IMG/VR virus record: IMGVR_UViG_3300012642_000011
Span: 288,001 to 352,000 of that record
Direction: 5' to 3' (one strand)
Source: a virus
Length of the DNA stretch: 64,000 bases
The notes beneath the pieces were generated by a model that saw nothing but the letters and a program-made list of their open reading frames with translations, was not told the DNA's origin and did not search any database. How positions within the stretch are numbered: position 1 is the stretch's first letter; each line of letters opens with the position of its first letter. Position numbers and translations under genes: made by a program. This document shows positions 95 through 38,409 of the stretch, piece after piece.

Positions 95-108
95 GGGACA
101 CAGAATGT
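95..108 (+). repeat. motif A instance (GGGGACACAGAAT family)
   Basis: aggggacacagaatg. This is the first of about 40 intergenic, same-strand copies. Others lie near 978, 1957, 2292, 3308, 5535, 5925, 8770, 9880, 10720, 11235, 12020, 12600, 13090, 14680, 15170, 15905, 16400, 16860, 18120, 18995, 20025, 23025, 24260, 25195, 25750, 26575, 27375, 28190, 29095, 29940, 31600, 32685, 33405, 33810, 36160 and 38275. Confidence 0.6.
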
Positions 109-207
109 GTTTCATTTTAAATCCGGCATGATTGATTTTCTCGTATTGACGATCATTGCTCAATGGTGTACTGTAGAAGACAAAGGCAACTTCCAACCGA
201 GGAGAGC

Positions 208-924
208 ATGATGACCAAGGACATGTCGCAGATCACCATCGATCTCATGACGGCTACCCCTTCCGAGTTCGACACCGCTTACAGCAAGGCCATTGAGGAA
301 GCCTTGCGTGTGGGTCAGCGTGCTGAGAGTGACCGTGAGAGCATCTGTAGGAGTTTCTACCCGTCGTATCAGTACCCTGACATGACGGATGCGGAGAAGA
401 TGGATGCTGCTCGTGTCTCAGAGGATTATTTCATCAAGCGGTTCTACGATAGCTTCGTTGATCACAAGTCGCAGTATTATGCCCTTCAGGACGCTCTGAA
501 GCGGTACGAGAAGGCGTTTGATGATCGTGGTGGGTGGTCACGATTCTTCATTGTTCGTGCTTCCAACGGGCACATTCATTCCTCCATGGGGTGCTCTACT
601 TGCAACAAGAATGGTAAGCCTACTAACTTTGGCTGGCTGCCTGATCTGTCTGGTCTGAATGAGAAGGATGCTGTGGATGCTCATGGGGCCATCCTGTGTA
701 CTGTGTGCTTCCCTTCCGCGCCTGTGGAGTGGACGAACCACTATGAGGAGCAGGAGAAGAAGAAGGCTGCTGAGAAGTGCTCTGGGTCGGGCAAGAGTTA
801 CGATCCCTCGCTTCCAAACCGAACTGGCTACTACTCGGGCAACTGGGCTACCTGCCCTGAGTGCAGCAAGAAGGTCACCCTGACTTCCACCATGAAGTTG
901 CGTTCTCACAAGCCTGAGAAGTGA
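208..924 (+). CDS. hypothetical protein with paired CxxC zinc-ribbon motifs
   Basis: ORF 163..924. An RBS GGAGAG sits 3-8 nt before the ATG at 208/211. Pairs CSTC...CTVC and CPEC suggest a Zn ribbon. Motif A lies about 100 bp upstream. Confidence 0.5.
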   Translation: MMTKDMSQITIDLMTATPSEFDTAYSKAIEEALRVGQRAESDRESICRSFYPSYQYPDMTDAEKMDAARVSEDYFIKRFYDSFVDHKSQYYALQDALKRYEKAFDDRGGWSRFFIVRASNGHIHSSMGCSTCNKNGKPTNFGWLPDLSGLNEKDAVDAHGAILCTVCFPSAPVEWTNHYEEQEKKKAAEKCSGSGKSYDPSLPNRTGYYSGNWATCPECSKKVTLTSTMKLRSHKPEK

Positions 925-1074
925 CCTGAGTCCATTCCATATAGTGATCATGTGGCATCACTATATGGAATGGACTGTAAGGGGACACAGGATCGACATG
1001 ATGGCCTAGTCAGAGATCATGTGTTTCGGTTGCTATCATACGTGTGATGGAACGCGCAATACTTAGGAGCACTC

Positions 1075-1398
1075 ATGAGCAACCAGATTCGATTCAGCAA
1101 GGGCGAGGGAACACGCATTCTCGCGGAAATTGACATTGACCTGCAGCAACATGACGTGATCATGGACGTAGAGGATGCTGTAGAATGCGTGTCTGATAGA
1201 TCTGACATAGGGTACTCGCTGATGGATGGGTATCTCGCTGTGGGGGACGTGACATGCTCCGATGTGGTCTTTGCCCACCATGAGTTCAGAGAATCTTTAG
1301 TGCAAGCCGTAGAGGACGTGTACGAGGAACGTATACTGCAGATTCAAGCCATACTGGATGAGTTGATGAACAATCCGCCAGAGCATCACCACGGCTGA
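1075..1398 (+). CDS. hypothetical acidic protein
   Basis: 107-aa ORF with RBS AGGAG upstream and motif A about 95 bp upstream. Confidence 0.45.
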   Translation: MSNQIRFSKGEGTRILAEIDIDLQQHDVIMDVEDAVECVSDRSDIGYSLMDGYLAVGDVTCSDVVFAHHEFRESLVQAVEDVYEERILQIQAILDELMNNPPEHHHG

Positions 1399-1530
1399 GA
1401 AATCTGTTGTAGAGTGGAGGGCATGGAAGACGCTCAGCGTCTTGAGAACTCGAATCTTCCGTGAGAGTTGACAATCTGCTTGCTTTGTGAAATGATGCTG
1501 AGAGGATTCATATAACCGAGGAGAATATTT

Positions 1531-1887
1531 ATGTTTGGCAATCTTTCCTTCTATCAGAACGCTGATGATCTGTCTACAGTGTTCTTCTATGTCGAGCGTG
1601 ATGGCGAGGAGTACGAAACTGAGGTCACCCTTACTGACGCTATCGAGTACGCTGTGCATAAGCCTACCCTGTACTTCCATCCGTACAGTAGGGGTATGAA
1701 TAGCCGTCCTGGTAGTGCTTACATCTTTGATGTTGAGTATGAAATGCCTGATGGTTTTGACACCATCGCTGTGCCGTCCAGTCAATACGCAAATACGCTT
1801 CCTGAATTCGTGGATCGTGCGCGTCGAGAGTACATTGATCATTTGCGTGGTGTGGCTGATCATCTGGAAAAGATTCGTGTGATCTGA
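1531..1887 (+). CDS. hypothetical protein
   Basis: 118-aa ORF with RBS GAGGAGAA upstream, followed by a 10-bp-stem terminator hairpin. Confidence 0.5.
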   Translation: MFGNLSFYQNADDLSTVFFYVERDGEEYETEVTLTDAIEYAVHKPTLYFHPYSRGMNSRPGSAYIFDVEYEMPDGFDTIAVPSSQYANTLPEFVDRARREYIDHLRGVADHLEKIRVI

Positions 1888-2077
1888 TGTTGAGACAGAC
1901 GTTCTGATAGTCCCGTATAGTGAGAAATCAAGTTCTACTATACGGGATTTTCCATGTTGCCCGAAGGGACACAGTTTTTAATAAATCCTTCCTGTGAATC
2001 GCCTGTTGAGTTGCCAGAGTGGTCGCCAGAGCATCCCTGATGGGGTACAATAGAGGTATCCGGCAAGGGGAGGGAAT

Positions 2078-2255
2078 CATGAAGACCATGGTACGAGAGC
2101 ACGAGGTGAGGGTGACCTTCGTTGGTCGCAACACGGCGTTCCACTCTGGGATCATGCTGGAATCTGTGGCCGTGGAGTTCGCAGAGAGCGAGCGCATGAA
2201 TCCCGAGACCACGGAGATCATCATTGAGTGTGACCCGTACTGCTGGTGCCAGTGA
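2078..2255 (+). CDS. small hypothetical protein
   Basis: Inner ATG of ORF 2019..2255, preceded by GGGGAGGG. Confidence 0.3.
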
Positions 2256-2333
2256 GTTTACAGTATTCTCACAGTTATCGTACATGAATGCAGGGGACAC
2301 AGAAATAATCTTCAACGAATATTGCTTGTCGTG

Positions 2334-2362
2334 TTGACAAGCCGTTTCTCATCTGATAATAT
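2334..2362 (+). promoter_or_regulatory. sigma70-type promoter TTGACA-N17-TAATAT
   Basis: A perfect -35 and a near-perfect -10 lie about 45 bp upstream of the CDS at 2404 and about 40 bp downstream of motif A. Confidence 0.55.
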
Positions 2363-2403
2363 TCATCGTAGATAAGAATTCAACGACGCAGACGAGGTAC
2401 ACA

Positions 2404-3222
2404 ATGTCGAAGACGTTCAAGACTGATCCCACAGACGTGCAGATTCGCCGCCAGATGAAGGTTGATCCGTACCGTTCCACGGAGAAGAACGGGGTTCACT
2501 CCCGTAGGGTGTACAAGAACAAGCACTACTTCCAGTACGACGTGATCTTCCGCGCCAACGAGGTGTCGCAGATGGAGGCGTTCTTGTCCATGCTGGACAA
2601 CAACAAGGACACCACCAAGATTCAGCACTCCACCCGTAGTCGTAGCCTCATCACGTACACGGTCAAGGGCATGAACGGTTACCTTCAGACCGGCTCCGCC
2701 TACACCTACGGCTCTTACGGATCGGTCTACGGTCGCAAGATCCGCGTGAGGACTAAGTTCGATCACATGAAGGGGTACAGCCAGAGCGATTTCGATGACA
2801 TCGTGGCCCGTGTCGCTGTTCACAAGAACAACAACTCCAAGACTCGCGGCGCGACCTACGACGTGTTCAACGTGATCACCGTGAACGAGGAAGTCACCTT
2901 GAACAACCCCAAGGACGACGAGAAGTACGAGTACGCGATGGGCCACGAGTTCGACAAGATGTTCCCTCGCTACCGTGACGCTTGGGAGTCCAACGAGATG
3001 GCAGCAAAGAGGCGATCCCTCAGGTCCTACCGTGAGGACGACCTTGACATGGGGGATCACCAGAGCGACCCTGCTATGGCGAAGTACGAGGACAATCTTA
3101 CCATGTTGGATTACAACTACCAGATTCCCTTGTTGCTGGACGACTACGACTTTGACGAGGCGTTGTGCCCGCAGACCGCAGACGGGCACTCCACTCTGGT
3201 TTACACCACGGAGTCCCAGTGA
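2404..3222 (+). CDS. hypothetical protein (272 aa)
   Basis: Long ORF with a strong consensus promoter about 45 bp upstream (TTGACA-17-TAATAT at about 2334-2362), followed by a hairpin plus T-tract terminator at about 3236-3285. Confidence 0.55.
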   Translation: MSKTFKTDPTDVQIRRQMKVDPYRSTEKNGVHSRRVYKNKHYFQYDVIFRANEVSQMEAFLSMLDNNKDTTKIQHSTRSRSLITYTVKGMNGYLQTGSAYTYGSYGSVYGRKIRVRTKFDHMKGYSQSDFDDIVARVAVHKNNNSKTRGATYDVFNVITVNEEVTLNNPKDDEKYEYAMGHEFDKMFPRYRDAWESNEMAAKRRSLRSYREDDLDMGDHQSDPAMAKYEDNLTMLDYNYQIPLLLDDYDFDEALCPQTADGHSTLVYTTESQ

Positions 3223-3327
3223 TCAGATGAAAGAAGGGGTACGGGAATTAAGTTTCCCGTGCCCCTTCTTTGTTTTTAATTTCAATGGAAGATGACAATG
3301 ATTAGGGGACACAGATAACTGTGTCAC

Positions 3328-3648
3328 TCAATCCTTGCTCACCTGTGTAGCACGATCCGCCTGCGCCATAAGAGATGCAACACGAAGCGGTGTCTCCCTA
3401 GCGTGAAAGTCATCCCAGATTTCTTGGAGGACGCTGTTGCTCGTGGGACGCTCTGCCGCTACGAACTCTTCTAGCCGGTTTTCCTTCACAGGGGCGATCT
3501 CGCGTGCTGCCTCGGCGATCTGATCTGCGTCTCCCACGTAGTCAAGAGCAATTAATTCTTCCGTCTCTTTGACAAGACGTGCTTTTGATTCAGGCATCTG
3601 CCCTCCACCTGTGTTCAAGGCATCTGATCCTGTGCTTGCTTTGTCCAT
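3328..3648 (-). CDS. hypothetical protein
   Basis: 106-aa ORF in a minus-strand gene array. Confidence 0.45.
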   Translation of the reverse strand: MDKASTGSDALNTGGGQMPESKARLVKETEELIALDYVGDADQIAEAAREIAPVKENRLEEFVAAERPTSNSVLQEIWDDFHARETPLRVASLMAQADRATQVSKD

Positions 3649-3760: not shown

Positions 3761-3770
3761 CCCGCTCATG

Positions 3771-4037: not shown

Positions 4038-4183
4038 GGTCTCTCCTTGCGTAGAGGTGCGTTTCTGTTCTCAGTGTAGCCAATGCGCGTGTAGATTACA
4101 AGACGGGAAATGAGTACCTCTGGGGGACACGATTTCGACATATTTAAAACACGCTGTACGTCTTGTTTATAGGCAATAAAAAT

Positions 4184-4224: not shown

Positions 4225-5229
4225 TCACTCACCATGCTTGGCAAGGAACTTGTTGTTGATGGCCTTGAAGTTGGCACGGTCGCCGGTCTCAGCGAACTCC
4301 TTGCCCTCACGGTTCCACCACACCACGCCCTCAGCCTGCACCTTGGGGTTGATCGTGGAGGTCATGCCGTTCACCTGCTCCACGGCCTGCTCTACAGTCT
4401 CAGGGAGAACAAGGTCGAGGTGCGGGACGGAATGCTTCTCCACGAAGGCGTCGAATGCCTCATCGGCAACAGGGGAAGACGCGGAGAACACCAGAAGACG
4501 GTTACCCTGAATCTTCAGCTTGTTGCCCTGAATTCCCTCGCCCACAATCTCGCCCTGAATGATAGCACCCTCGGGCATGATCTCTGCAAGACCAAGACGC
4601 TCCGCCATCTTCGCCTGCATAGACTCCGTGGGGTGAAGCGTCCAGTTGCGCCCTGCCACCACGATCTCGCCCTCACGCTTGAGGAACGTGGAGGACGTAC
4701 CATCCACCTTCTCCGTAGCAAACCACTCGTTGCGGTCAAGGGAGGCAAGGAACTCATCGGAGAGGTTCTGCACGCGCTCAGAATCGGTCTTACGAACACC
4801 ATGAGGGAACGGGTCCACCATCTGACCACCCATGGGAATCGGAGGCTCGAACTTGAACACGCCCAGACGCTCCGCCACAGCATCCACTTCGGACTGTGTG
4901 GAGTCAGCGTTCAGACCGAATCCCAGCGGGAGGATAAGACCCTGAGAGAACACGCCGCGCAGCTTCATGGTGCGGAGGACATGCCCACGAACGGTCTGCC
5001 CGTTGGGGGACGTGGCATCCTTGGAGGACTTCGCAGACAGGAAGGAGAACTCCGGCACGTCAGCGGGAAGGAAGGCGTCGATCTCGAAATAGAGAACAGG
5101 CTGACCAGCCTTGAACTCACCCTTCTTCACGACAGACTTCCAGCCGCCGATGGTGGCGACCTCGATAGCGTCAGCGTTCTCGATGGGATCGATTCCATCG
5201 ATCTTCTTGATGCTCATCATCTTGCGCAT
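4225..5229 (-). CDS. ATP-dependent RNA ligase (KxDG nucleotidyltransferase; DraRnl or Rnl2-like with an N-terminal extension)
   Basis: Motif I EKVDGTS carries the lysine of the KxDG adenylylation motif. Downstream EGVVWW and FKAI resemble motifs IV and V. A terminator hairpin sits at about 4184-4218. Confidence 0.65.
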   Translation of the reverse strand: MRKMMSIKKIDGIDPIENADAIEVATIGGWKSVVKKGEFKAGQPVLYFEIDAFLPADVPEFSFLSAKSSKDATSPNGQTVRGHVLRTMKLRGVFSQGLILPLGFGLNADSTQSEVDAVAERLGVFKFEPPIPMGGQMVDPFPHGVRKTDSERVQNLSDEFLASLDRNEWFATEKVDGTSSTFLKREGEIVVAGRNWTLHPTESMQAKMAERLGLAEIMPEGAIIQGEIVGEGIQGNKLKIQGNRLLVFSASSPVADEAFDAFVEKHSVPHLDLVLPETVEQAVEQVNGMTSTINPKVQAEGVVWWNREGKEFAETGDRANFKAINNKFLAKHGE

Positions 5230-5346
5230 ATTCCACTCTCCTTGTGGTTGTTGTGCTCTTTCTCAAATAATCGTACTACACATGAGTGCCCCCTGTCAAC
5301 ATGGGATCACGTTAACAGGGGGACGCTCCACTTTGATCAATCATGG

Positions 5347-5504: not shown

Positions 5505-5589
5505 TGTATTCTCCTTTGTATCAACAGTGTAGGGACACAGTTTATTAACGTGTGGTGTAGCCGTTGTTGACTATCACCATGTGATCATG

Positions 5590-5751: not shown

Positions 5752-5937
5752 TGTTTTTCTCCTTGTGCGTAAAGGCATTCTATGGGGTGAGCATATCACA
5801 GGGAATACTCATATGTCAATGAGAAAGGGGCTGTGGTAGCAATAACCACCACAGCCCCAAACGAGATCACGTTAACTGTACAGCATGTACGCAACGCGGT
5901 CAACAACAGAACCATGGGGGACACAGGTAGTCTGAGA

Positions 5938-6423: not shown

Positions 6424-6573
6424 GAATGGTCTCCCTTACGCCCTATAAGACTTACTTCTAGTGTAATCTATGATAGCAGAAAAATCAACGTTCAGATATA
6501 GGGGACACATAATTCGGCAGCATAAGGAAAGGGGAGGGATCGTGTTATTGATCCCTCCCCTTCTGAAATCAGA

Positions 6574-7416
6574 TCACCACGCGGGAGCACCCACGGGGAG
6601 GTTGGTGATGCCACACGTGCTCACAGCATCCGACAGAGCGGCCCGCTCAGCGTTGGTCACAGCGAGATCGTACTTGGACTTCACAGCGATCTGATGGGCG
6701 GCGATCAGGCAGCTACCGGAAGCGGAAGGAGCCTGCCACTCATCGAAAGAGTCATCGGACTTATCCTGATTCACCTTGGACGCCGTGGGAGCAAGGTTCA
6801 GAGGATCGTTGGCGATCTGGTAGCGCATGTCAGGGGAAGCCCATGCGTGAGCGCCGGAGTCCCACGCGTTGGAGAGAGCAACAATGTGGTCGATCTGAAT
6901 GCTCTTGGACACCTCATCTGCCGTGGTGGCAGAGATAGTCTTTCCCGTGTAGGGGTCAACCATCGTGCCGGAGAGCACACGGCACTTCGCGTTCACCTCA
7001 GCATCCGGCATGGCGGCGATCAGGGTCTCATCACGGGTATCACAGCCGTCCTTGTCGAAATCCATCCACGATCCGAACAGAGCCTCACGCTCGCCAGAGT
7101 AACCAGCGGCCTTGGCACCGTCGTAAGTGTCCAGAGCGTTCAGGGCCTCCATGGCATCCATCCCCGTGTAGGAGGAACCATCGAAGGAGGCATCAGAAGA
7201 GGACTCTCCACCAACCGCCTCAGACAGAGCATCCTTGCCCTTGTCCAGCATGGAGTCGATCTTCGCCTTGCCCTCGTCAAGCAGGGCGTCCGTGGCAGAG
7301 GAAGCAGCCTCAGTGGCCGTGCTCTCCACGGTGCTCTGAATGGTCTGGCAACCAGTGGCCGTCATGGCGGCGAGGGTGAGGGTGATGCCAGCGGTGATCT
7401 TCTTGAGCGTCTTCAT
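6574..7416 (-). CDS. putative lipoprotein or secreted protein with a C-terminal DUF1524 (HNH-like, GmrSD C-terminal family) nuclease domain
   Basis: Signal peptide MKTLKKITAGITLTLAAMTATGC. The C-terminal block DGCDTRDE...IDHIVALSNAWDSGA...NDPLNL...VNQDKSD matches the secreted DUF1524 family. RBS AGGAGA precedes the start. Confidence 0.55.
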   Translation of the reverse strand: MKTLKKITAGITLTLAAMTATGCQTIQSTVESTATEAASSATDALLDEGKAKIDSMLDKGKDALSEAVGGESSSDASFDGSSYTGMDAMEALNALDTYDGAKAAGYSGEREALFGSWMDFDKDGCDTRDETLIAAMPDAEVNAKCRVLSGTMVDPYTGKTISATTADEVSKSIQIDHIVALSNAWDSGAHAWASPDMRYQIANDPLNLAPTASKVNQDKSDDSFDEWQAPSASGSCLIAAHQIAVKSKYDLAVTNAERAALSDAVSTCGITNLPVGAPAW

Positions 7417-7632
7417 GGTCTCTCCTGAGTTGGGGAAGTGCTTCTTGTTGACCCCAGTATAGGCACATGGAGGCTTGGATTGCAAATCAACAGGACGCTC
7501 CATACTTCATGATGTCGTGGTGCTCTGCGTTTTCAGGGAGAAAAGAGCGACACCAGACGCGAGGGGACACTGTTTGATCGAAAACGCACAACAGGGGAGG
7601 AACAGGTTTCCCCGTCCCTCCCCTGCCGATCA

Positions 7633-8226
7633 TCAGTTGGACAAATCATCCAGCAGAGAAAGCGTCCTCATGAGTTCACCCACGCTCATTTCCAGACGGA
7701 AACGACGCGCCGTGCCATCAGAGTACGCCACCACACCAGTCACTCCTTCATGGCGGCTATTCTCCACGAAAGTCCCCTCGAACTCGCTCCACGTGTCATC
7801 CTTGACGTTCAGGACAGCCACCGCGCTACCGCGCTTGTTCCTAGTGAAGTCGTAGTCCTTCCAACCGTATTCAGAAACCAGCACATCTTCTGCCGTACCC
7901 TTCTTCGCCAGAACCTCTGCAAGAAGAGCCTTGAAACGGTCAGCGGAATGCAGTTCGTTGTCAGGACGCTCCGCCACCGCATCGACGGACACGTAGTGCT
8001 TCCAGAACTCATGCACAGCACGCTTGCCCATGTGGCCGGGATCGTAGTGCTCTTCCTCATAGAGATCTGCCACTTCCACGGCAGTCAGAGAAGAGTCAGC
8101 GTTCTTCATGACCTCATAGACGTTATCCGCCAAGTCATCGGTGAGGTAACATCCATACCCGTACAACAGGTTTTCTTCTTCCTCACACATGCTCATCAGG
8201 CGATCCTTGAATTCCTGCTTGTCCAT
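7633..8226 (-). CDS. hypothetical protein
   Basis: 197-aa ORF, with a terminator hairpin at about 7590-7630. Confidence 0.45.
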   Translation of the reverse strand: MDKQEFKDRLMSMCEEEENLLYGYGCYLTDDLADNVYEVMKNADSSLTAVEVADLYEEEHYDPGHMGKRAVHEFWKHYVSVDAVAERPDNELHSADRFKALLAEVLAKKGTAEDVLVSEYGWKDYDFTRNKRGSAVAVLNVKDDTWSEFEGTFVENSRHEGVTGVVAYSDGTARRFRLEMSVGELMRTLSLLDDLSN

Positions 8227-8337
8227 GATGGTTCCTACTTTCGTTTAAAAGGGGATCTTGATTTCAGAAGTAATGCTACAGCCTGATGCAGCGTATGTCA
8301 ACTCGTGGTGTCATCTCTAAGGGGACGCTCCATATGA

Positions 8338-8724: not shown

Positions 8725-8861
8725 GGTGGAAGGATACCCTAGTGTCTGTCTGTTGTCAACATGTTACGGTCATGGGGACACAGGAATGGTTGTGCTGAAA
8801 GATCAAATCGAGGAGGGAGAGCGTCGATACTCTCCCTCCCCGATTCTTGACTTACACCTTG

Positions 8862-29024: not shown

Positions 29025-29170
29025 CCACACCTGAACTCACAAGCGGGATACGATGGAGTGTTTCATCGTATCCCGCTTTCTTTCCTACTCATAGGGGACA
29101 CAATATTCAGAACTAAAGCAAAAAGGAGAGGGAGACCATGATGCTATGGTCTCCCTCTCGCGTTTAGCGA

Positions 29171-29872: not shown

Positions 29873-29995
29873 CCTATAACACCGGAGAAGTCAATGCAAC
29901 ATGTGATTCCATTGGTGCGTCATCTGTCGTCATATTTAATGGGGACACAGAATGAGAGCATGCGAGCACTTGGTGAGAGTGCTTGCTCATGGTGG

Positions 29996-30476: not shown

Positions 30477-30622
30477 GATGTCCTCCTTTGACTTCTATAT
30501 TATACCATGTGGACGCTCCATACACAAGTGCCGACTCCACATGTATAATCTTGCAATGGTGTACATATAACGAGAAAGAGTGATCCCCCTACACCATTCA
30601 GGCGAGGGGGATCACTCAGGAC

Positions 30623-30970
30623 TCACTTGTTGTGAGCGGCGCGGTAACGCTTCACGGTGTCACGGGACAGACGGCCACGCTTGCCCTTCTCGATCAGGCC
30701 CTTCTCCTCAGCCCACGCGCGGATCTCGGCGGCGGAGTCGGAGACCACAACGGTATCCTTATCGGTGAACTGGTACTTCTTGCGGATCTTGTTCTTCAGG
30801 ATCTTCTCGGCGTTCTCAGCCACGAACTTGGGGTCCTGGACCTTGGTGGCGGACTTGGCGTTCAGCGGGACGATGTAGATACCCTTGTTCGGGATCAGCA
30901 CCTCCACGGGCTTGGCACCCATCTGCTTGGTGATCGCGTCCTGCAGGAACTTCTTCTGGGTCTTGGTCAT
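30623..30970 (-). CDS. Lsr2-like DNA-binding protein (single C-terminal domain)
   Basis: The C-terminus reads IRAWAEEKGLIEKGKRGRLSRDTVKRYRAAH. Internal start MTKTQKK with RBS GAAAGGAAG. A terminator hairpin lies at about 30583-30618. Confidence 0.55.
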   Translation of the reverse strand: MTKTQKKFLQDAITKQMGAKPVEVLIPNKGIYIVPLNAKSATKVQDPKFVAENAEKILKNKIRKKYQFTDKDTVVVSDSAAEIRAWAEEKGLIEKGKRGRLSRDTVKRYRAAHNK

Positions 30971-31683
30971 GATGCTTCCTTTCAAAGTGATCATTGTGAT
31001 CAGGATGTGTGTTCTTCTGTCTTGCTGGTATCCATGTTGCCACATTATTTCTTCCGTGTCAACTATGGATCTGCATTTTTCTCAAGGTTCCTTCTGCTTC
31101 TCTGTCGGCTTCCGTTGCCTTGATGAGTACATCATGGCACACCTTTAATCCCCGTGTCAACACTTTTGCCAAAATTTTCTCAAAAATCCTCTGACATGGG
31201 TGTTTACAAGAGAATCAGGGGGCTGAACAAAGGGACGCTCCACGAACTCACACCTGCTGCCTGTTGTAATAATTCTTATATAAGCCTTATATAAGCAAAA
31301 AGAAAGCATACAGGGACGCTCCACATACATAGCCTACAGGTCTGCAATCCTTCCTCTGCGACAAGAGAAGAGCGTTCAGAACACCTCTGCATGGGGACGC
31401 TCCACACATGCGGGATGAGGAGGTCACATCAGTGTGCTTGCTGGACACGCTGTACGCCGTTCTGAGGGCATGAAGGAGTGGCAAGCCATCAATGTTCGTA
31501 CCAGACCTAGAAACGCCCCACAGGGGCACACAGCCTCTCGTGGAAGGGCGTACAGCCGCCTAAGGTGACTTGTGAATCACTCCACGGTCATGGTTTCCCT
31601 GTAGGGACACAGAATGACGAAACATAGACAAAGCACCCTGTGTTCTCCCCGTCAAGAGAGCACAGGGTGCTTCAATGTGTCTA

Positions 31684-32187
31684 TCAGAAATCAGCCTGAT
31701 TCAGAACAGCCTTGACGTTGGCCCGATCCTTCTCAAAAGTGAGAGTACGATCAGCGTTATCGATCAGGGACTGGATCACGTCCTGCTTGGTTTCGTACCC
31801 GTCCTCGATCTCATCCTCGTCCACGTCGTCAAAGAACGTCCACGCATAACCGTTCTTGGTGCTCAGGATAGCATAGCGGCCCATGCCGTCGAAATCGTGC
31901 TCCCACAGAAGAGTGCCCTCAATCTGCTCCCACTTGTGCTTGCGCAGAGTATCCATGACAGGCGTGTAGAGCGCGGTGAAGGCATCCCCGTCAATGACCT
32001 CATCACCGATCTTCTGGGCCAGGTCATTCAGAGCATCCTCGTAGGAGACATGCACATCGTCGCTGAAGTGCTCCTGATCGTCCTCGAACACATCTCGATA
32101 CCCCGTCTTGTACTCCCCGTTGGAGATCTTGGCGACGTAGTAGGTCAGGGCCTTGTTCCCCGTGGAGAACTCGTTGATGATCTTCAT
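31684..32187 (-). CDS. hypothetical acidic protein
   Basis: 167-aa ORF with a terminator hairpin at about 31638-31678. Confidence 0.45.
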   Translation of the reverse strand: MKIINEFSTGNKALTYYVAKISNGEYKTGYRDVFEDDQEHFSDDVHVSYEDALNDLAQKIGDEVIDGDAFTALYTPVMDTLRKHKWEQIEGTLLWEHDFDGMGRYAILSTKNGYAWTFFDDVDEDEIEDGYETKQDVIQSLIDNADRTLTFEKDRANVKAVLNQADF

Positions 32188-32293
32188 GATCTTCCTTTTC
32201 TGTGAAGGCGGTGTTTAACTCTTGCTCTCATCATAAGCACAGGGACGCTCCAATGTCAACCACGGATCATCACGTCTTCTCTGCTCCCTGTTG

Positions 32294-32605
32294 TCAACCA
32301 CGGATCACAGGTGCAGGCGGGTGACCACTACCGCCGCCCTTACAATAGGACTCATGCCAAATGGGCAATGAGCAGTCATCTGCATGCAATCCGAACGTCT
32401 CTCCCCATGGTCTCATTCTATACGAAATGCCGAAACACAGATGGCACTGTGAAAGATCCTCATTGGGGCCTTCTGGTCCACGGTGTAACCCACGGGGACA
32501 CGGAATCTCACCGCGCCTGATCTTTTCCTGCAACTCCTGATACTCCTGCAACGCTCCGTTAGCGATGCGCTCACGTGCTGCTTTCCTGAATGCATTCTCG
32601 CTCAT
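32294..32605 (-). CDS. hypothetical protein
   Basis: 103-aa ORF. Confidence 0.4.
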   Translation of the reverse strand: MSENAFRKAARERIANGALQEYQELQEKIRRGEIPCPRGLHRGPEGPNEDLSQCHLCFGISYRMRPWGETFGLHADDCSLPIWHESYCKGGGSGHPPAPVIRG

Positions 32606-32750
32606 GGCATTCTCCTTCGATAGTAGTGCTTTATTTTACCAAGATAGATGCTATGTTGACCATTTGTTACAGCAGGGGGCAAGGGGACACAGAGTGATCT
32701 ACTAAGGATAGGCGGTAACACCCAATGTGTTACCGCCTATCTGTTGTGTT

Positions 32751-33287: not shown

Positions 33288-33479
33288 GTCCTTCTTTCAA
33301 AGTAATCGGTCTTGCTCTGTCATGGATGAATCTACCACAGGGGACGCTCCATGCGCAACCTGATACTCACATTATTTTTTTGCAGATAGTTCTCAACAAG
33401 ACAGAGGGGACACAGATAACACTACGGGGTGAGCATGGCATCTACCCGAACACCATGCTCACCCCGTGAAATCAGCAGT

Positions 33480-33710: not shown

Positions 33711-33827
33711 GATGATTCTCCTTCAAACACTGATTTCATTGTCTCTTGTCAGGATACACAGAAGGACGCTCCATTGTCAAGAATACATCAGGTCACGTTT
33801 TCCAGACATGGGGACACAGTGTTGCCA

Positions 33828-34271
33828 TCAAGCACCCAAGCCTACACCTGATTCTTTGGACAACTGTGTGATGAACCTCGTGATCTTCTTTGTTTCCAAG
33901 ATAGCAAGGCTCTGATCATTCACCACACCAAAAGTCTCCCCCACATCGTTGTAGTCCATGCTGTGCCAGACGCCCAAGGGGACGCTCGAAGAAGCAAACT
34001 CCTTGCCGACAACAAGAGAACCATCTCTTTCTGAAACCTTGTAGAGACCAAAAGGAGCGTGCAAATGATCCTCAGGGGAATCGTAGAACTCGAAGACGAA
34101 CTTGCGTGGCTTGCGGGAGAGTTTATCCAGTTCAGCCATGATGGCCTCAGCAACGCTCAGCAAGGAAAGCGTCCTCTGTACTCGATTGTACGCGTTGATT
34201 ACATCTGCATGAGAATTCTGAATTCCTAAACGCAGTTTTCTCACACCTGATGCAGTCACTTTTGTCGCCAT
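33828..34271 (-). CDS. hypothetical protein
   Basis: 147-aa ORF. Confidence 0.45.
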   Translation of the reverse strand: MATKVTASGVRKLRLGIQNSHADVINAYNRVQRTLSLLSVAEAIMAELDKLSRKPRKFVFEFYDSPEDHLHAPFGLYKVSERDGSLVVGKEFASSSVPLGVWHSMDYNDVGETFGVVNDQSLAILETKKITRFITQLSKESGVGLGA

Positions 34272-34453
34272 GATCTCTCTTCTCTCAGTCAGCAGATTGC
34301 TATATTCATCTTTGCAGATTGTATCAAAACATCCCCACGTCTAAGATTTAAAGATCATAAGAGGACGCTCCATTATTGAAGGTGTTGCACTCTATGCAGG
34401 TTCATGATACTGTGGAAGCAAGTTGATAACTCACACACCACAAGGAGACCGTC

Positions 34454-34768
34454 ATGAAGAAGATGACCGCAGAGCAGATGCAGGACTACCGAGAGAACTT
34501 CGGTGATGTCCCCAATAGCAGAATGGCATACGCCAATGAGTACGAGCGAGGGAAGTTCCTCAAGAAGCATGGGTTCAACGCTGATGCCAACGACGACATC
34601 TTCTCTGATACCAAGTACGTGTACTGTGTCTCTCACATTCGTCCTCACACTGTGGGCTGGTGTACTGTAGGCGCAGCTAACCAGTACCCTCTTGTTGCAC
34701 AGGATGATGTGTCTGCGCTTCAGGAAACGCGCAATCTCAACTTCCCCATCATGGGCGATAAGGACTGA
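34454..34768 (+). CDS. hypothetical protein, first copy of a tandem paralog pair
   Basis: MKKMTAEQMQDYRENFG...TKYVYCVSHIRPHTVGWCTV is paralogous to the next gene. RBS AAGGAGA. Confidence 0.5.
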   Translation: MKKMTAEQMQDYRENFGDVPNSRMAYANEYERGKFLKKHGFNADANDDIFSDTKYVYCVSHIRPHTVGWCTVGAANQYPLVAQDDVSALQETRNLNFPIMGDKD

Positions 34769-34863
34769 GCACCCTTCACAGGACGCTCCATACTCTTGCA
34801 CGCTGAGCGCTCATGTGATAGGCTAGAAGCACCACTTGAGAAGTAAACCACAAGGAGACCATC

Positions 34864-35199
34864 ATGGATCAGATGACCGTAGAGCAGATGCAGGACTACC
34901 GAGATAACTTCGGTCCTGTCTCCCTCAGCAGCAACGAGGGTGAACACCATCGCTTTAAGTACTTCAAGTCGCGCGATATGGACGTGTCCGCACCTGATAC
35001 GATCTTCCCTGACACCAAGTACGTGTACTGTGTCTCTCACATGAATCCTCACACCGTGGGTTGGTGTACTGTGCGTGTTGCCAATAAGTACCCCCTGCTC
35101 TCCACTGATCGTGAGAAGGCTATCGAGGAATGCCGCGACCTTGACTTCCCGCTGTTCGAGGACGTGGAGAAGATGCGTCGTCTGGCCCAGAAGCCCTGA
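34864..35199 (+). CDS. hypothetical protein, second copy of a tandem paralog pair
   Basis: MDQMTVEQMQDYRDNFG...TKYVYCVSHMNPHTVGWCTV. It has its own promoter TTGCAC-17-TAGGCT and RBS. Confidence 0.5.
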   Translation: MDQMTVEQMQDYRDNFGPVSLSSNEGEHHRFKYFKSRDMDVSAPDTIFPDTKYVYCVSHMNPHTVGWCTVRVANKYPLLSTDREKAIEECRDLDFPLFEDVEKMRRLAQKP

Positions 35200-35354
35200 T
35201 AATCAAGCCTGTGATGGCTACACAGCAAGGTCATATCATCCACCGATTCGATGGATTTTAAAAACTGATCACAGTGAGAGTTGCAATGCTTGCAGATGTG
35301 TAGTACACTTTAAATCGTAAGCACGAACCACTCATTGAAATCAAGGAGAATGCC

Positions 35355-35657
35355 ATGAAGATGAACACGAACACCAAGACCGTCAAGCAGACCACGCTCA
35401 TTTTCGAGATTGAGAGCGAGGATGACGTTGCGACCTTCAACGATGAGATCGAGAAGGCGCTTGAGCAGGCGTGGGATGATGATGCAGAGCAGAGCATCTA
35501 TGATGACGAGGTTATTGCGCCTAAGATCGAGCTTAGCCCCAACTGGAACGGAAACGCCGTCATTGGCTACAAGGGGGGCGTTATCGCCACCTTCGATCAC
35601 CTTCCCGTGACCATCGAGGTTCCGGCTCACAACACGTCGGCAACCAACGTCATGTGA
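35355..35657 (+). CDS. hypothetical protein, first copy of a second tandem paralog pair
   Basis: ...HTTLIFEIESEDD...PVTIEVPAHNTSATNVM, followed by a terminator at about 35662-35705. Confidence 0.5.
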   Translation: MKMNTNTKTVKQTTLIFEIESEDDVATFNDEIEKALEQAWDDDAEQSIYDDEVIAPKIELSPNWNGNAVIGYKGGVIATFDHLPVTIEVPAHNTSATNVM

Positions 35658-35661
35658 CCTG

Positions 35662-35705
35662 AAGAAGAGCAGGGGAGAGACCACGAGGCATCATTCGTGG
35701 TCTCT
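35662..35705 (+). terminator. intrinsic terminator
   Basis: aggggagagaccacga...cgtggtctctcccct followed by ttttttg. A paralogous copy follows the next gene at about 36083-36122. Confidence 0.6.
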
Positions 35706-35757
35706 CCCCTTTTTTGCTATAATAATCGTAAATCACACGTACAAGAAGGGAGATAAA

Positions 35758-36069
35758 ATGGAGATCACAGCAAGCAATGAGAACGTCAAGCACACTACTC
35801 TCACCTTCGTCCTCAACAGCGAGGAAGAGGTTGTCGTCTTCAACGATGTCGTGGAAGAGCATTTGATCGAGGCATGGGAAAACGGAGCGTTCAAGAGCGA
35901 AAACGAGGACGAGAGGCACGTTCCTCAGATCGAGAAGGAAGAGACAGATGATCTCAATGAATACAGTCTCCTGTACCACATTGACGTGCTGGACACCTTC
36001 ACTGGCGAGGACTTCCCGGTGACCATTCAGATTCCGGCTCACAACACGTCAGCAGTCAGCATCCTGTGA
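35758..36069 (+). CDS. hypothetical protein, second copy of a second tandem paralog pair
   Basis: ...HTTLTFVLNSEEE...PVTIQIPAHNTSAVSIL, followed by a near-identical terminator at about 36083-36122. Confidence 0.5.
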   Translation: MEITASNENVKHTTLTFVLNSEEEVVVFNDVVEEHLIEAWENGAFKSENEDERHVPQIEKEETDDLNEYSLLYHIDVLDTFTGEDFPVTIQIPAHNTSAVSIL

Positions 36070-36236
36070 CTTGAACAAGAAAAGGGGAGACCACGAGGTT
36101 AGCGTGCGTGGTCCCCCTTTCTATTTGCCTAGATCACGCAGAAAACGCACGAATAAATGAGGGGACACAAATCTTGTATCCTTTACCTTTTGATAGAATT
36201 ACATTATAGACGTTCCACTTTCTCAAAGGAGTATTC

Positions 36237-37001
36237 ATGGCGACAAAGACTGTCACCCTCTCAAGCAACCCCCTCAGGCATCCAAAAATGCCCAGCATGA
36301 TCCTTGGACCTGTAGCCTCCCGAGGTGGTCAGGCATGCTACGCGCCTGTAGCGTTCCTGCTCAAAGATGGGACGCTCTACACGTCTCTCAAGACAGGTAA
36401 AATCGATGAATGGAGTGATACTGAATGCTCATCATTCCGCTTCCTCAAGTACACTTACACCGATGATTTCACCCGCGAGGGGGATCAGTGGTACATGAAC
36501 GGCGAGCCGCTCTACGACGAAGAGGAATACCCTGTCATCCCCCATAGGGAGGGGCAGACCATTGCAGAGGTCACAGCCTTCATAGACACGCCTCTGACGG
36601 CAGATGAGGACGCTCCTACCACCAGCGCTATTGAAGCCATCTCTACGCCTACAGGAAGCGACGAAGGAGAGCAAGAGGTTGCTCAAGCGTCTCTGGACAC
36701 TACCGATTCCATGAACACAGGAGAGCACTATTTCAAGAACCTTGTGCGTTTACCAGATGGGGCTTGGTTTGGACTGTCCGAAACGTCAGGACGCTTGATG
36801 TGGGTCAGTGATGAGCAGTTGAAATCATTCTCCATTAATAGGGCTGCTAACGATGTCGTCTCCTATGTTAAAGATGGCGGCAAGTGGATACAAAGAGGCA
36901 AAGGCCCCATTGGAAAGCCATTCCCATGGGTTACCGCGCTCATTGTCCTCATGGTGGTAGCAGCGGCAGCATTCGGTTATTGGTGGTTCGTCATGAAGTG
37001 A
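36237..37001 (+). CDS. C-terminally membrane-anchored hypothetical protein
   Basis: The C-terminal TM reads WVTALIVLMVVAAAAFGYWWFV. RBS AAAGGAG. Confidence 0.5.
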   Translation: MATKTVTLSSNPLRHPKMPSMILGPVASRGGQACYAPVAFLLKDGTLYTSLKTGKIDEWSDTECSSFRFLKYTYTDDFTREGDQWYMNGEPLYDEEEYPVIPHREGQTIAEVTAFIDTPLTADEDAPTTSAIEAISTPTGSDEGEQEVAQASLDTTDSMNTGEHYFKNLVRLPDGAWFGLSETSGRLMWVSDEQLKSFSINRAANDVVSYVKDGGKWIQRGKGPIGKPFPWVTALIVLMVVAAAAFGYWWFVMK

Positions 37002-37082
37002 TAGGGACGCTCCATATCTTAATACCATCATCATCTCATATGCAATTGTTAGAGAAAACAGCATCATAGCGAGGTGGTGCAA

Positions 37083-38276
37083 ATGGGAATAGTGATCACA
37101 AAGACGGCCTACGGGAAGTCAAAAACGGATGGCACATGGGAGAGATGCCGCGCAAAGCCTGAGAACAGGGGTAAGGGGCGATGTCCGCACGGAGAGCATC
37201 AAGACCTCACCAAAGACGAGGAGCAAATCATCCATGTGCTCAACGATGAGATACTCATCAAGAAGTACGGCAGTACAGCAAGGTTGTCCAAGAAGGGGGA
37301 CGCTCCTTCCTCAACAGGCAAGAGGACGCAGCAATCAGGGCAAGCATCGTCCAAGCCTAGAAGGAAGCGCAGAGGACAAGGCAGCAGGAGAAACAAGATC
37401 GCCAAGGTGGGAAATAACTCCTTTGCTACCCATGAAGGGGGACGCTCCCTTACAAGAAAAGAATTCGATACATCAAGCCAGAAGGTGGCAGAATCTTTCC
37501 CCCAAGAGGATTGGAAAGCCATCAATAGTTTTTATTCAAAGTTCTCTGAAGTATCTGAAAAGGATGAAGCGAAGAAGAACTTTGATTCTGCGGTGAAGTC
37601 CGTTAAGGAATACATGAAGAGTGATGACCCTGATGCTGTGAAGATGAGGGAATTCTTTGGTGATGATGTGAACGTGGATGACGTGGCAGAGATACTGGTC
37701 TACCAAGTCAACGCTATGCGTTCTCCTATCACGTGGGAAACCAAGAGGCCGGGCACTATCAAGCGTTCTATAGCCACCACGGTGAACAACGACATGAACA
37801 AGGAGAGATACGTTGCCAGCGTCATGTTCTTTGGTGGAAGGTGCTGCTACTGCAATCAGCCCATGTCCAAACGAGAAGGTGACTCCAAGGCTACAGGCGA
37901 GCACATTACACCCGTGAACCCTTCTGGTAACGGAGTGATGGGAGGGACACGCTATGGCAACATGGCTCTTGCTTGTTCAGGGTGCAACAACGAGAGAGGC
38001 AACAAGGAGTTGAATGAGTGGATCAGCGAGACCTCAAGGCTTTCAGAGGAGAATAAGAAGGCTTCTATGGATCGTATTGACCAGTTCAGGAAGTTTGCTC
38101 TCTACAAGGAGTACACGCCGGAGCAGTCGAATGCCATCAGGGCGGCTATCAAGGAGACAGAGAAGTTCATGTATGAGAGAAGGAATCCTAATGGTTCGTA
38201 TGTGGACAATGGGATCAAGGAGATCAGGGATCACTTGAAGATCACGATTCATGATCTGAATGAGATGCTGAGGTGA
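37083..38276 (+). CDS. HNH endonuclease with a long basic N-terminal region
   Basis: CCYCNQ...GEHITPVNP...NMALACSGCNNERGNK is an HNH or His-Me finger. The ATG at 37083 is preceded by GAGGTGG. Its TGA stop overlaps the last copy of motif A. Confidence 0.6.
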   Translation: MGIVITKTAYGKSKTDGTWERCRAKPENRGKGRCPHGEHQDLTKDEEQIIHVLNDEILIKKYGSTARLSKKGDAPSSTGKRTQQSGQASSKPRRKRRGQGSRRNKIAKVGNNSFATHEGGRSLTRKEFDTSSQKVAESFPQEDWKAINSFYSKFSEVSEKDEAKKNFDSAVKSVKEYMKSDDPDAVKMREFFGDDVNVDDVAEILVYQVNAMRSPITWETKRPGTIKRSIATTVNNDMNKERYVASVMFFGGRCCYCNQPMSKREGDSKATGEHITPVNPSGNGVMGGTRYGNMALACSGCNNERGNKELNEWISETSRLSEENKKASMDRIDQFRKFALYKEYTPEQSNAIRAAIKETEKFMYERRNPNGSYVDNGIKEIRDHLKITIHDLNEMLR

Positions 38277-38409
38277 GGGGACACAGTTCTTAGTCGCCTA
38301 GAAGCAAGAAACCCTGTAAGCATTGCTTACAGGGTTTCTGTATTGATTAACTCGTGGTGGTGCTCACAAGGCTTAAAGAGATGGATGCTGGCGAGGATTT
38401 AGCACCCAC

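Follow-up and report, generated by a model that had tools for sequence, protein, structure and literature searches.

Two short asymmetric DNA motifs, designated A and B, recur throughout the high-GC part of a viral DNA stretch of 64,000 nt (IMG/VR record IMGVR_UViG_3300012642_000011, positions 288,001 to 352,000; the whole stretch is referred to as the window), and all of their copies are located on the same strand, whichever way the neighbouring genes point. Between positions 1 and 38,290 the core GGGACAC of motif A was found 43 times and the core GGACGCTC of motif B 40 times on the + strand, and neither was found on the - strand. Since the copies are one-stranded irrespective of gene direction, they appear to be read from the DNA itself, most likely by a phage protein or enzyme with strand specificity, and not as ordinary promoters, and A and B are probably DNA-level sites with a genome-defined polarity rather than transcription signals tied to gene direction.

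An initial annotation of the window had described more than 60 one-stranded motif copies without any reverse complement in the 38-kb high-GC part. The strand bias was borne out, as was the estimate of about 40 copies of A; B turned out to be more frequent than the assumed 25 or so. The motif field had also been taken to span these 38 kb, while it continues for at least 19.5 kb further to the left: in the DNA recovered there (loci L007 and L108) A was counted 24:0 and B 13:0 (+:-). The count on both strands that had been proposed for the full genome was run over a composite of 57,955 bp, in which A occurs 67:0 and B 53:0, together 120:0 with no reverse complements. The field has a length of at least 58 kb and a mean motif spacing of ~480 bp. 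The copies in the window are given below; for intergenic copies the strands of the left and right neighbouring genes are added, and ORF stands for open reading frame.

1-38290, +, motif field (window part), ~52% GC array of small genes with own promoter/terminator; 83 cores on +, 0 on -
94-106, +, motif A, GGGGACACAGAAT, intergenic edge/+
488-498, +, motif B, AGGACGCTCTG, inside + ORF 163-924
981-993, +, motif A, GGGGACACAGGAT, intergenic +/+
1965-1977, +, motif A, AGGGACACAGTTT, intergenic +/+
2293-2305, +, motif A, GGGGACACAGAAA, intergenic +/+
3305-3317, +, motif A, GGGGACACAGATA, intergenic +/-
3445-3455, +, motif B, GGGACGCTCTG, inside - ORF 3328-3648
4123-4135, +, motif A, GGGGACACGATTT, intergenic -/-
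5320-5330, +, motif B, GGGACGCTCCA, intergenic -/-
5531-5543, +, motif A, AGGGACACAGTTT, intergenic -/-
5917-5929, +, motif A, GGGGACACAGGTA, intergenic -/-
6501-6513, +, motif A, GGGGACACATAAT, intergenic -/-
7492-7502, +, motif B, AGGACGCTCCA, inside - ORF 6574-7503
7563-7575, +, motif A, GGGGACACTGTTT, intergenic -/-
7963-7973, +, motif B, AGGACGCTCCG, inside - ORF 7633-8226
8322-8332, +, motif B, GGGACGCTCCA, intergenic -/-
8774-8786, +, motif A, GGGGACACAGGAA, intergenic -/-
9874-9886, +, motif A, AGGGACACAATTT, intergenic -/-
10299-10309, +, motif B, GGGACGCTCAA, inside - ORF 10188-10628
10430-10440, +, motif B, GGGACGCTCCA, inside - ORF 10188-10628
10718-10730, +, motif A, GGGGACACAGAAG, intergenic -/-
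11240-11252, +, motif A, GGGGACACAATAA, intergenic -/+
11813-11823, +, motif B, GGGACGCTCAA, inside + ORF 11426-11953
12020-12032, +, motif A, GGGGACACAGAAT, intergenic +/+
12609-12621, +, motif A, GGGGACACAAGAT, intergenic +/-
13091-13103, +, motif A, AGGGACACAAGAA, in called - ORF 12631-13113 near its start, which may be miscalled
14133-14143, +, motif B, GGGACGCTCTT, inside + ORF 13762-14595
14680-14692, +, motif A, AGGGACACAGAAT, intergenic +/-
15081-15091, +, motif B, GGGACGCTCCA, intergenic -/-, spacer of leftward -35/-10 promoter
15172-15184, +, motif A, GGGGACACAGTAT, intergenic -/-
15905-15917, +, motif A, GGGGACACAAAAT, intergenic -/-
16403-16415, +, motif A, GGGGACACGAAGC, intergenic -/-
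16860-16872, +, motif A, GGGGACACAAGAT, in called - ORF 16478-16972 near its start, which may be miscalled
17828-17838, +, motif B, GGGACGCTCCA, intergenic -/+, spacer of leftward -35/-10 promoter
18122-18134, +, motif A, GGGGACACAAGTT, intergenic +/-
18740-18750, +, motif B, GGGACGCTCCA, intergenic -/-
18997-19009, +, motif A, GGGGACACAAAAT, intergenic -/-
19102-19112, +, motif B, GGGACGCTCCA, inside - ORF 19080-19274
19413-19423, +, motif B, GGGACGCTCCA, at start of called + ORF 19411-19974
20024-20036, +, motif A, GGGGACACAGATT, intergenic +/+
20384-20394, +, motif B, GGGACGCTCCG, inside + ORF 20082-20720
21116-21126, +, motif B, GGGACGCTCTA, intergenic -/-, spacer of leftward promoter, left junction of 584-bp cassette missing in L113
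21700-21710, +, motif B, TGGACGCTCCA, intergenic -/-, spacer of leftward promoter, right junction of 584-bp cassette missing in L113
21793-21805, +, motif A, AGGGACACGGATT, intergenic -/-
22418-22428, +, motif B, GGGACGCTCCA, intergenic -/-, spacer of leftward -35/-10 promoter
23024-23036, +, motif A, GGGGACACAAAAA, intergenic -/-
23416-23426, +, motif B, GGGACGCTCCA, intergenic -/-, spacer of leftward -35/-10 promoter
24260-24272, +, motif A, GGGGACACAGAAA, intergenic -/+
24650-24660, +, motif B, GGGACGCTCCA, inside + ORF 24311-25138
25198-25210, +, motif A, AGGGACACAGAAT, intergenic +/-
25473-25483, +, motif B, TGGACGCTCTG, inside - ORF 25212-25712
25745-25757, +, motif A, AGGGACACAGTAT, intergenic -/-
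26574-26586, +, motif A, GGGGACACAAGAT, intergenic -/+
27066-27076, +, motif B, GGGACGCTCCA, inside + ORF 26669-27325
27374-27386, +, motif A, AGGGACACAAGTT, intergenic +/-
27834-27844, +, motif B, GGGACGCTCCA, intergenic -/-
28187-28199, +, motif A, GGGGACACAGGAT, intergenic -/-
28713-28723, +, motif B, GGGACGCTCCG, intergenic -/+
29094-29106, +, motif A, GGGGACACAATAT, intergenic +/-
29941-29953, +, motif A, GGGGACACAGAAT, intergenic -/-
30510-30520, +, motif B, TGGACGCTCCA, intergenic -/-, spacer of leftward -35/-10 promoter
31232-31242, +, motif B, GGGACGCTCCA, first of three at 81-nt phasing, gene-free gap
31313-31323, +, motif B, GGGACGCTCCA, second of three at 81-nt phasing
31394-31404, +, motif B, GGGACGCTCCA, third of three at 81-nt phasing
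31603-31615, +, motif A, AGGGACACAGAAT, intergenic -/-
32242-32252, +, motif B, GGGACGCTCCA, intergenic -/-, spacer of leftward -35/-10 promoter
32494-32506, +, motif A, GGGGACACGGAAT, in weakly supported - ORF 32294-32605
32683-32695, +, motif A, GGGGACACAGAGT, intergenic -/-
33341-33351, +, motif B, GGGACGCTCCA, leftward promoter spacer, L113/L115 synteny ends 9-11 nt rightward, core GGATGCTC in L113/L115
33406-33418, +, motif A, GGGGACACAGATA, intergenic -/-
33763-33773, +, motif B, AGGACGCTCCA, intergenic -/-, spacer of leftward -35/-10 promoter
33810-33822, +, motif A, GGGGACACAGTGT, intergenic -/-
33979-33989, +, motif B, GGGACGCTCGA, inside - ORF 33828-34271
34362-34372, +, motif B, AGGACGCTCCA, intergenic -/+
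34780-34790, +, motif B, AGGACGCTCCA, intergenic +/+
36161-36173, +, motif A, GGGGACACAAATC, intergenic +/+
36369-36379, +, motif B, GGGACGCTCTA, inside + ORF 36237-37001
36607-36617, +, motif B, AGGACGCTCCT, inside + ORF 36237-37001
37004-37014, +, motif B, GGGACGCTCCA, intergenic +/+
37297-37307, +, motif B, GGGACGCTCCT, inside + HNH ORF 37074-38276
37439-37449, +, motif B, GGGACGCTCCC, inside + HNH ORF 37074-38276
37943-37955, +, motif A core only, possibly a chance 7-mer, AGGGACACGCTAT, inside + HNH ORF 37074-38276
38277-38289, +, motif A, last of the field, GGGGACACAGTTC, directly after the HNH ORF TGA, at the GC step

Chance or base composition as the cause of the motifs was ruled out by the match counts and by a k-mer ranking. 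With up to one mismatch, GGGGACACAGRAT gave 22 matches (0.13 expected) and GGGACGCTCCA 34 matches (0.89 expected), all on the + strand; the chance expectation for the 7-mer core of A was about 2 per strand. When all 7- and 8-mers of the high-GC part were ranked by strand asymmetry, GGGACAC and GGACGCTC came out on top. The 5-mer GGGAC, common to both, occurs 95:16 (+:-), and A and B are two classes of related asymmetric sites with the common core GGGAC-R-C. The window consists of two compositional halves, with 49-55% GC from position 1 to ~38,300 and 39-44% GC from 38,300 to 64,000. The motif family stops, as had been noted before, at this change: the GC content drops from ~0.50-0.53 to ~0.41 at the right edge of the field, and the last A (38277-38289) begins right after the TGA of the HNH ORF 37074-38276. 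In the low-GC half (38,301-64,000) neither core was present on either strand with up to one mismatch allowed, and the same ranking revealed no comparable strand-asymmetric k-mer.

Gene direction in the field is mixed. In the window part, 20 genes on the + and 45 on the - strand were called with a self-trained codon-usage caller, in line with the earlier estimate of about two thirds on the - strand; these calls gave the right strand for four homology-supported ORFs and matched pipeline calls on public contigs. The left 19.5 kb contain 18 + and 19 - genes (pipeline calls), including nine consecutive + genes, which amounts to about 38 + and 64 - genes over the 58-kb field. Each of the small field genes has its own promoter and terminator in every gap read, and promoter-like sites (31 vs 16.9 in shuffles) and terminator-like sites (34 vs 12.2) are enriched.

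Motif A has the form a-(G/A)GGGACAC-A-(G/A)-n-(A/T)-T. It is compact, holding roughly 18-20 bits in 13-14 nt, with nothing conserved on either flank beyond these, no palindrome and no conserved inverted partner. In 39 of its 43 window copies it lies outside ORFs, compared with a coding fraction of 0.75 (P=2e-19); the description of both motifs as almost only intergenic thus holds for A and fails for B, of which 19 of the 40 window copies lie inside ORFs. Across the field the spacing of A is regular (coefficient of variation (CV) 0.55 vs 0.98 for a random null; none of 2,000 simulations was as regular), with approximately one copy per transcription unit. On inspection of all gaps, the order seen between two rightward genes (++) is terminator hairpin, A, promoter, and between two leftward genes (--) it is the mirror image. 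When 75 nt were folded on each side of every A copy, a strong hairpin was found to the left of A in 6 of 7 ++ gaps of the window and 7 of 8 of L108 (pipeline calls; 13/15 in total), and to the right of A in 15 of 21 and 8 of 8 -- gaps, respectively (23/29 in total). The side was never reversed (Fisher P=1.8e-5 for the window alone). This agrees with the earlier placement of A beside the terminators of leftward genes and with the order proposed for ++ spacers; the fixed distance of 40-45 bp to the -35 box was not recovered, as it ranges from 28 to 48 nt rightward (13 to 74 nt leftward). Convergent gaps nearly always contain A (7/8), compared with 21/35 of the -- and 6/11 of the ++ gaps, and divergent gaps are often without A (3/8). 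Located 5-26 nt beyond terminators, motif A occupies the little untranscribed DNA that follows a transcription unit; its placement relative to transcription is the same for either gene direction, and its polarity is fixed by the genome.

Several conventional identities were considered for the motifs and rejected. For A, neither an upstream element in a constant position nor a constant distance to -35/-10 boxes or start codons was detected. A sigma70-type promoter element was dismissed for A because it has neither an upstream box nor a fixed gene distance, and a two-part promoter was dismissed for both motifs because of the missing fixed upstream element, the T-rich words upstream of A being terminator tails. 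A structured RNA does not fit, because the Rfam scan returned three tRNAs and no other RNA family and the hairpin side of A flips with gene direction. A mobile element (REP or IS200/605-like) was discarded since the hairpin beside A varies in sequence and changes side with gene direction.

It is improbable that the motifs are rightward promoters of a phage-specific RNA polymerase or sigma factor, all firing one way across the field in order to boost + genes, to silence - (early) genes by antisense transcription or to drive a T7-like transcription-coupled DNA entry. The information content of A is comparable to that of single-element phage promoters, its 3' half CA(G/A)nAT retains A and T where a -10 hexamer has them (a scanner flagged 78-106 as promoter-like), A lies upstream of + genes in ++ and -+ gaps, and a polymerase bound at B could occlude leftward promoters. 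Nevertheless, what follows downstream of two thirds of the A copies is antisense sequence only, +- gaps contain A no less often (7/8) than ++ gaps (6/11), and in -- gaps a strong hairpin follows it within 13-26 nt. Neither the upstream element nor the constant start-codon distance of a promoter was found, and no RNA polymerase or sigma gene was found in the 64 kb of the window or the adjoining 20 kb on the left.

Motif B has the form (G/A)GGACGCTCC(A) and a Poisson-like spacing (CV 0.96). Of its 53 copies in the field, 15 are held in fixed register, with a leftward TTGnnn box on one side and a TG-extended -10 box of the TAGAGT type on the other, and these B-type promoters constitute one conserved ~44-bp leftward sigma70-type family. 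The GTCAAC tail formerly assigned to B is the -35 box (GTTGAC on the - strand) of such leftward promoters and accompanies a minority of copies. The view that the motifs do not fit an ordinary promoter or operator element stands for A, which keeps no fixed box distance, and has to be restricted for B, given the 15 embedded copies. None of the rightward promoters carries B in either orientation. The 19 in-gene copies compare with ~0.5 chance copies of an 8-mer; 11 are in + genes and 8 in - genes. A peptide repeat was rejected as their origin because frames 0, 1 and 2 and both gene orientations are occupied. Motif B is a DNA-level word that is selected on one strand wherever it can be accommodated.

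Two local arrangements of B were recorded besides. The leftward promoters at 15817-15848 and 15070-15101 are paralogous (91% identical) with intact -35 and -10 boxes in both; B is perfect in the latter and degenerate (GGGAAGATCC) in the former, so that B is separable from promoter function. In the 638-nt gap 31046-31683, which holds no called gene, three perfect B copies are placed at an exact phasing of 81 nt (31232-31404); the sequences between them are not mutual repeats, and one of the three has a core substitution in the relatives L114/L115 described below.

These data bear on a non-cutting phage DNA-binding protein, for which B would be an operator in early leftward promoters and A a boundary, insulator or roadblock past terminators, in a stoperator-like system with its polarity set otherwise, e.g. 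by head-to-tail cooperative assembly. We consider such a binder a possible explanation, albeit a doubtful one. It gives the best account of B in promoters, with 15 copies in fixed register and one promoter from which B was lost as a separable add-on, and of A behind terminators, where a roadblock would stop read-through. The division into promoter sites and short-intergenic sites mirrors the asymmetric 13-mer operators and stoperators of L5 and TipsytheTRex (PMC9283540), and the likely actinobacterial host, indicated by Lsr2 domains, belongs to the group with known stoperators. As in phages with an L5 gp71-type monomeric repressor, there are dozens of asymmetric ~13-nt sites, some of them in promoters and others in short intergenic spaces, although 19 of the 40 window copies of B lie inside genes. 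However, the polarity of stoperators in Cluster A mycobacteriophages follows transcription and its reversal abolishes function (PMC9283540), a contrast that had been pointed out before, whereas here the polarity is genome-fixed in ++, --, +- and -+ gaps and in genes of both orientations, and there are two site classes, one of them also genic. A binder offers no reason for the 120:0 polarity: read-through polymerase would meet A head-on in one third of the gaps and tail-on in two thirds. It likewise leaves aside the lack of B in rightward promoters and the B copies inside genes on both strands, and no helix-turn-helix or repressor-like protein was found among the ~30 field ORFs scanned, most of which are ORFans.

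Replication polarity had been offered as another source of the strand bias. Seven DnaA boxes (TTATCCACA, up to one mismatch, both orientations) are clustered at 18776-18977 in a 444-nt gene-free gap, with only scattered singles elsewhere, and form an oriC-like element within the accessory-gene field. As replication-linked polar signals the motifs would be lagging-strand priming sites (- strand GTGTC/GCGTC, primers ACAC.../ACGC...) or polar fork barriers, which we regard as very unlikely. Uniform polarity is expected if one fork traverses the whole field in one direction, the mean spacing is suitable, and the reverse complement of A contains GTGTC, a bona fide recognition sequence of the T7 primase. 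Against this, the motif strand does not switch across the DnaA-box cluster, the only origin-like feature seen, the field shows no trend in cumulative GC skew, 3-5 nt and not 8-13 are sufficient for known primases, the motifs are absent from the 26-kb half of the window with the replication genes, and the avoidance of transcribed DNA by A is left unexplained. The motifs are therefore probably not replication-direction signals.

Conservation was analysed in related sequences. Contigs of the phage from other samples are 100% identical to the window and hence offer no microvariation. Four diverged relatives were used instead, namely L111 (~91% identity over 10.9 kb) and L113-L115 (92-98% identity), in all of which every A and B copy is on the same strand as in the window. 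In L111 all 13 syntenic A copies are kept with none of 91 core positions changed, compared with 10.7% in the surrounding intergenic DNA; in L113-L115 none of 105 core positions is changed, compared with 6.4% (P=0.0017). Positions 3' of the A core vary freely among the relatives. With 0/196 changed positions in total, the sequence comparison argues strongly that the A cores are under purifying selection. The B cores are unchanged in L111 as well (0/45).

The same relatives differ in gene content. Three apparent L113/L114 indels, at 25722-25849, 28206-28681 and 31152-31751, were discarded because runs of exactly 100 N, i.e. scaffold gaps (ENA SHEN23-1 scaffolds), align there as false indels. Four real events with six breakpoints were left. 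A 584-bp unit composed of gene 21196-21642 and its promoter is present in the window and absent from L113, with the junction inside the B-type promoters at 21116 and 21700. Synteny with L113/L115 breaks off 9-11 nt past the B copy at 33341, where the -35 edge of its promoter lies, and the cassette that replaces the window DNA beyond this point brings an A and a terminator of its own. The L108/L111 breakpoint falls 3-4 nt away from an A (L108 8102), and the DNA on its far side is unrelated and includes a TnpB gene. The fourth event, an intragenic deletion, is far from any motif. Of the six breakpoints, four fall no more than 12 nt away from a motif. Such a junction belongs to three of the four events and is located in B-type promoters in two of these; the number of events is small, and these alignments are suggestive of cassette turnover at motif-bearing junctions.

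Recombination linkers or Chi-like hotspots would explain this turnover if co-infecting relatives swapped self-contained gene cassettes at portable crossover points. Polarity would arise since only directly oriented crossovers keep the genome colinear, or since a nuclease coming from one DNA end reads one orientation. In T4-type phages, exchanges take place at conserved promoter/terminator cassettes (promoter-early stem-loop cassettes, PeSLs) in hyperplastic regions (PMC2839356, PMC4122927), and the field is a similar hyperplastic array of small, mostly ORFan genes separated by a strong sigma70-like promoter and a stem-loop terminator, with junctions in B-type promoters for two of the few indels and replacements available. 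A occurs once per unit at the unit boundary, the three junctions described above adjoin motifs, and the scatter of B through genes and gaps resembles Chi-type words. The family of 15 B-type promoters behaves in a PeSL-like manner, and only these 15 follow gene direction. A PeSL element, however, turns with its gene, whereas A is separate from promoter and terminator, stands at a variable distance from them and keeps its strand. Only four real events are available, of which one is unrelated to motifs and one touches an A; the B-junction events are explained by the ~44-bp promoter homology and not by the 8-11-nt core, and an identity of 7-13 nt is too short for efficient homologous recombination. 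In addition, A has no attC-type palindrome, the gene calls of the 58-kb field include no integrase or recombinase, and selection for evolvability would by itself hardly account for the strong purifying selection on the cores. On balance we judge linkers of this kind to be unlikely.

The reading that we rank first, tentatively and by analogy, is that A and B are recognition sites of a strand-specific phage enzyme that introduces programmed nicks into the + strand. Phage tf possesses 14 verified nick sites (TACT/RTGMC) in 46 kb, all on the top strand across both convergent gene arms, without a cognate word on the other strand; one half of the genome holds 11 of the 14, and relatives have retained their positions (PMC3517423). 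The nick sites of T5/BF23, phiKMV-like phages and tf have short asymmetric consensus sequences of 7-19 nt; tf tolerates site variants, and T5 has major and minor nicks (PMC3517423). One-strand polarity irrespective of gene direction can, on this comparison, be regarded as the defining property of verified nick sites. The sites described here are likewise short, asymmetric, confined to one strand irrespective of genes, unevenly distributed and conserved in position among relatives, and the two classes with a common core parallel the tf variants and the major and minor nicks of T5.

In the proposed mechanism, a phage-encoded sequence- and strand-specific enzyme would interrupt or mark the + strand only. 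As all sites are on one strand, the other strand would stay continuous, and 120 close interruptions would never be opposed, leaving the duplex unbroken; uniform polarity would be required because opposed nicks would break it. A would be the strict class, placed past terminators so that RNA polymerase need not cross it, and nicks would give a reason for keeping this class out of transcribed DNA. B would be the looser, scattered class, co-opted into or copied with the spacer of one early promoter family that points leftward. Cassette junctions with a strand break or a tightly bound protein would also be prone to recombination, which would fit the gain, loss and replacement of cassettes between related phages. 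Programmed nicks would also fit the mild depletion of A-like words on the opposite strand (2 vs 8.2 expected with up to one mismatch, 66 vs 99 with up to two, under a first-order Markov null that is not codon-aware).

A considerable number of points weigh against programmed nicks. From the observed polarity, placement, conservation and junction events, the nick itself and its enzyme are what we infer from sequence alone. Two HNH-type nuclease genes are present in the field (6574-7503 and 37074-38276); their products are candidate nickases by field location only, and a PDB sequence search with both proteins was uninformative. The density of 120 sites in 58 kb, or one per ~480 bp, is ~10 times that of any phage known to be nicked and contrasts with 14 in 46 kb for tf, whose sites are unrelated in sequence and verified, those of the field being known from sequence only. 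In tf, 2 of the 14 verified sites are outside and 12 inside annotated coding sequences, so the strict placement of A in untranscribed junctions is no known property of nick sites. The 15 B copies in promoter spacers look more operator-like than nick-like. Opposite-strand B-like words are not depleted under the same Markov null, and the B cores are less strict than those of A, with 2 of 96 intergenic positions changed in L113-L115. Three of the four motif-adjacent breakpoints fall in the ~44-bp B-type promoter homology, so that ordinary homologous recombination explains them without a nick, and the ends of contigs and scaffolds in public assemblies show no accumulation at the motifs.

A variant that joins nicking with cassette exchange, i.e. 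a strand-fixed boundary element in every untranscribed cassette junction that together with the scattered class serves as nicking and recombination points of a previously undescribed kind, is rather unlikely. If true, the giant phage would shuffle or repair an accessory early-gene array while its genome is kept colinear. Such an element could mix features of nick sites, PeSLs and integron arrays while belonging to none of them. Integron attC sites share with A the presence of one site per cassette boundary in a single orientation, with cassette ORFs pointing either way. They are imperfect palindromes of 57-141 nt recombined by an adjacent IntI integrase, and their cassettes are usually promoterless, whereas A has 13 nt and no inverted partner and the cassettes of the field bring their own promoters and terminators. 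For the 58-kb field and its 26-kb flank, neither gene calls nor Pfam annotation revealed an integrase or a recombinase, and the only transposase there is TnpB-like (39452-40753). Chi and KOPS/SRS words are over-represented orientation-dependent oligomers in coding and non-coding DNA, a feature matched by the scatter of B, and are recognized by translocating enzymes (RecBCD/AddAB, FtsK). Their bias is strong, not absolute, and flips at the origin and terminus in chromosomes, in contrast to the absolute bias of 8-13-nt words in one genome block without a flip at the DnaA cluster; A, moreover, is excluded from transcribed DNA, and B alone occurs in coding and non-coding DNA alike. The motif system shares single features with all five of these families (nick sites, stoperators, PeSLs, attC and Chi/KOPS/SRS) and lacks at least one defining feature of each testable one.

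Short phage repeats are nearly always filed as promoters, operators or terminators. Here, the clean uncoupling of motif and gene direction isolates a DNA signal with genome-defined polarity. With programmed nicks, no known case would come near it in density and order, none before it would have had a clear rule of placement (outside transcription units), and it would give a handle on the role of phage nicks, a question dating from the 1960s for T5. Protein-binding or recombination sites would represent a new way for giant phages to partition or shuffle their accessory gene cassettes. The present phage is undescribed, and neither motif was found reported in a phage context in the literature.

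The window DNA is present identically in contigs of 332,269 bp (ENA) and 142,564 bp (JGI), and window proteins are also encoded on a 437,576-bp contig, which identifies the source as a jumbo phage. A megablast search with both window halves revealed no close relative among 50,697 annotated phage records, and protein-level matches to annotated phages were distant only. In IMG/VR no relatives were found via two proteins or via motif probes, the AGGGGACACAGAAT matches being single chance copies, and a 20-nt B-type promoter probe with four matches in the window found nothing in scans of JGI metagenomes and GTDB genomes. Lsr2 domains, a FemAB gene and matches to Mycobacterium, Microbacterium and Gordonia phage proteins suggest an actinobacterial host, which fits the earlier guess of an actinophage. 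Lsr2 DNA-binding domains were recognized in three phage proteins (window 29171-29872 and 30623-31045, both -, and L108 6551-6892), one of which holds three tandem domain copies, a finding that is unusual and points to such a host.

The high-GC half is an array of small genes on both strands, mostly without family assignment; those with a family encode an RNA ligase, a metallophosphoesterase, a GmrSD_C/HNH protein, an HNH protein, a HAD-type protein and Lsr2-domain proteins. In the low-GC half, large genes that point leftward encode a helicase, a Lon-like ATPase, a sliding-clamp-like protein, subunits of ribonucleotide reductase and a homing-type HNH endonuclease. The large-subunit ORF of the reductase (region 42279-48903) comprises 1526 aa with family matches in three separate stretches, which suggests one or more inteins, and the genes of the large and small subunits have a 577-aa HNH/homing-endonuclease ORF between them. 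The drop in GC content from ~52% to ~41% (38290-40753) coincides with tRNA-Leu, tRNA-Glu and tRNA-Asn (38410-39305, -) and with the TnpB/IS605-OrfB-like gene of 433 aa (39452-40753, -); in L111 a different TnpB gene (1772-3016) is located at a synteny breakpoint. The RNA ligase gene (4225-5229, -) has homologues of 55-69% identity in unrelated bacterial and phage contexts, one of them beside a type I-E CRISPR-Cas locus, and is therefore considered horizontally mobile and no lineage marker; these contexts contain neither motif A nor motif B. One L108 protein is a repeat protein with thousands of homologues. Four tandem paralogous genes of ~100 aa (34454-36069, +) show 79-86% nucleotide identity between neighbours, indicating recent local duplication within the field. 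Terminator stems of unrelated genes across 1-38300 reuse the arms GGGAGAG...CTCTCCC (e.g. 14716-14741, 16885-16920 and 29126-29159), so that the field terminators themselves look like a sequence family.

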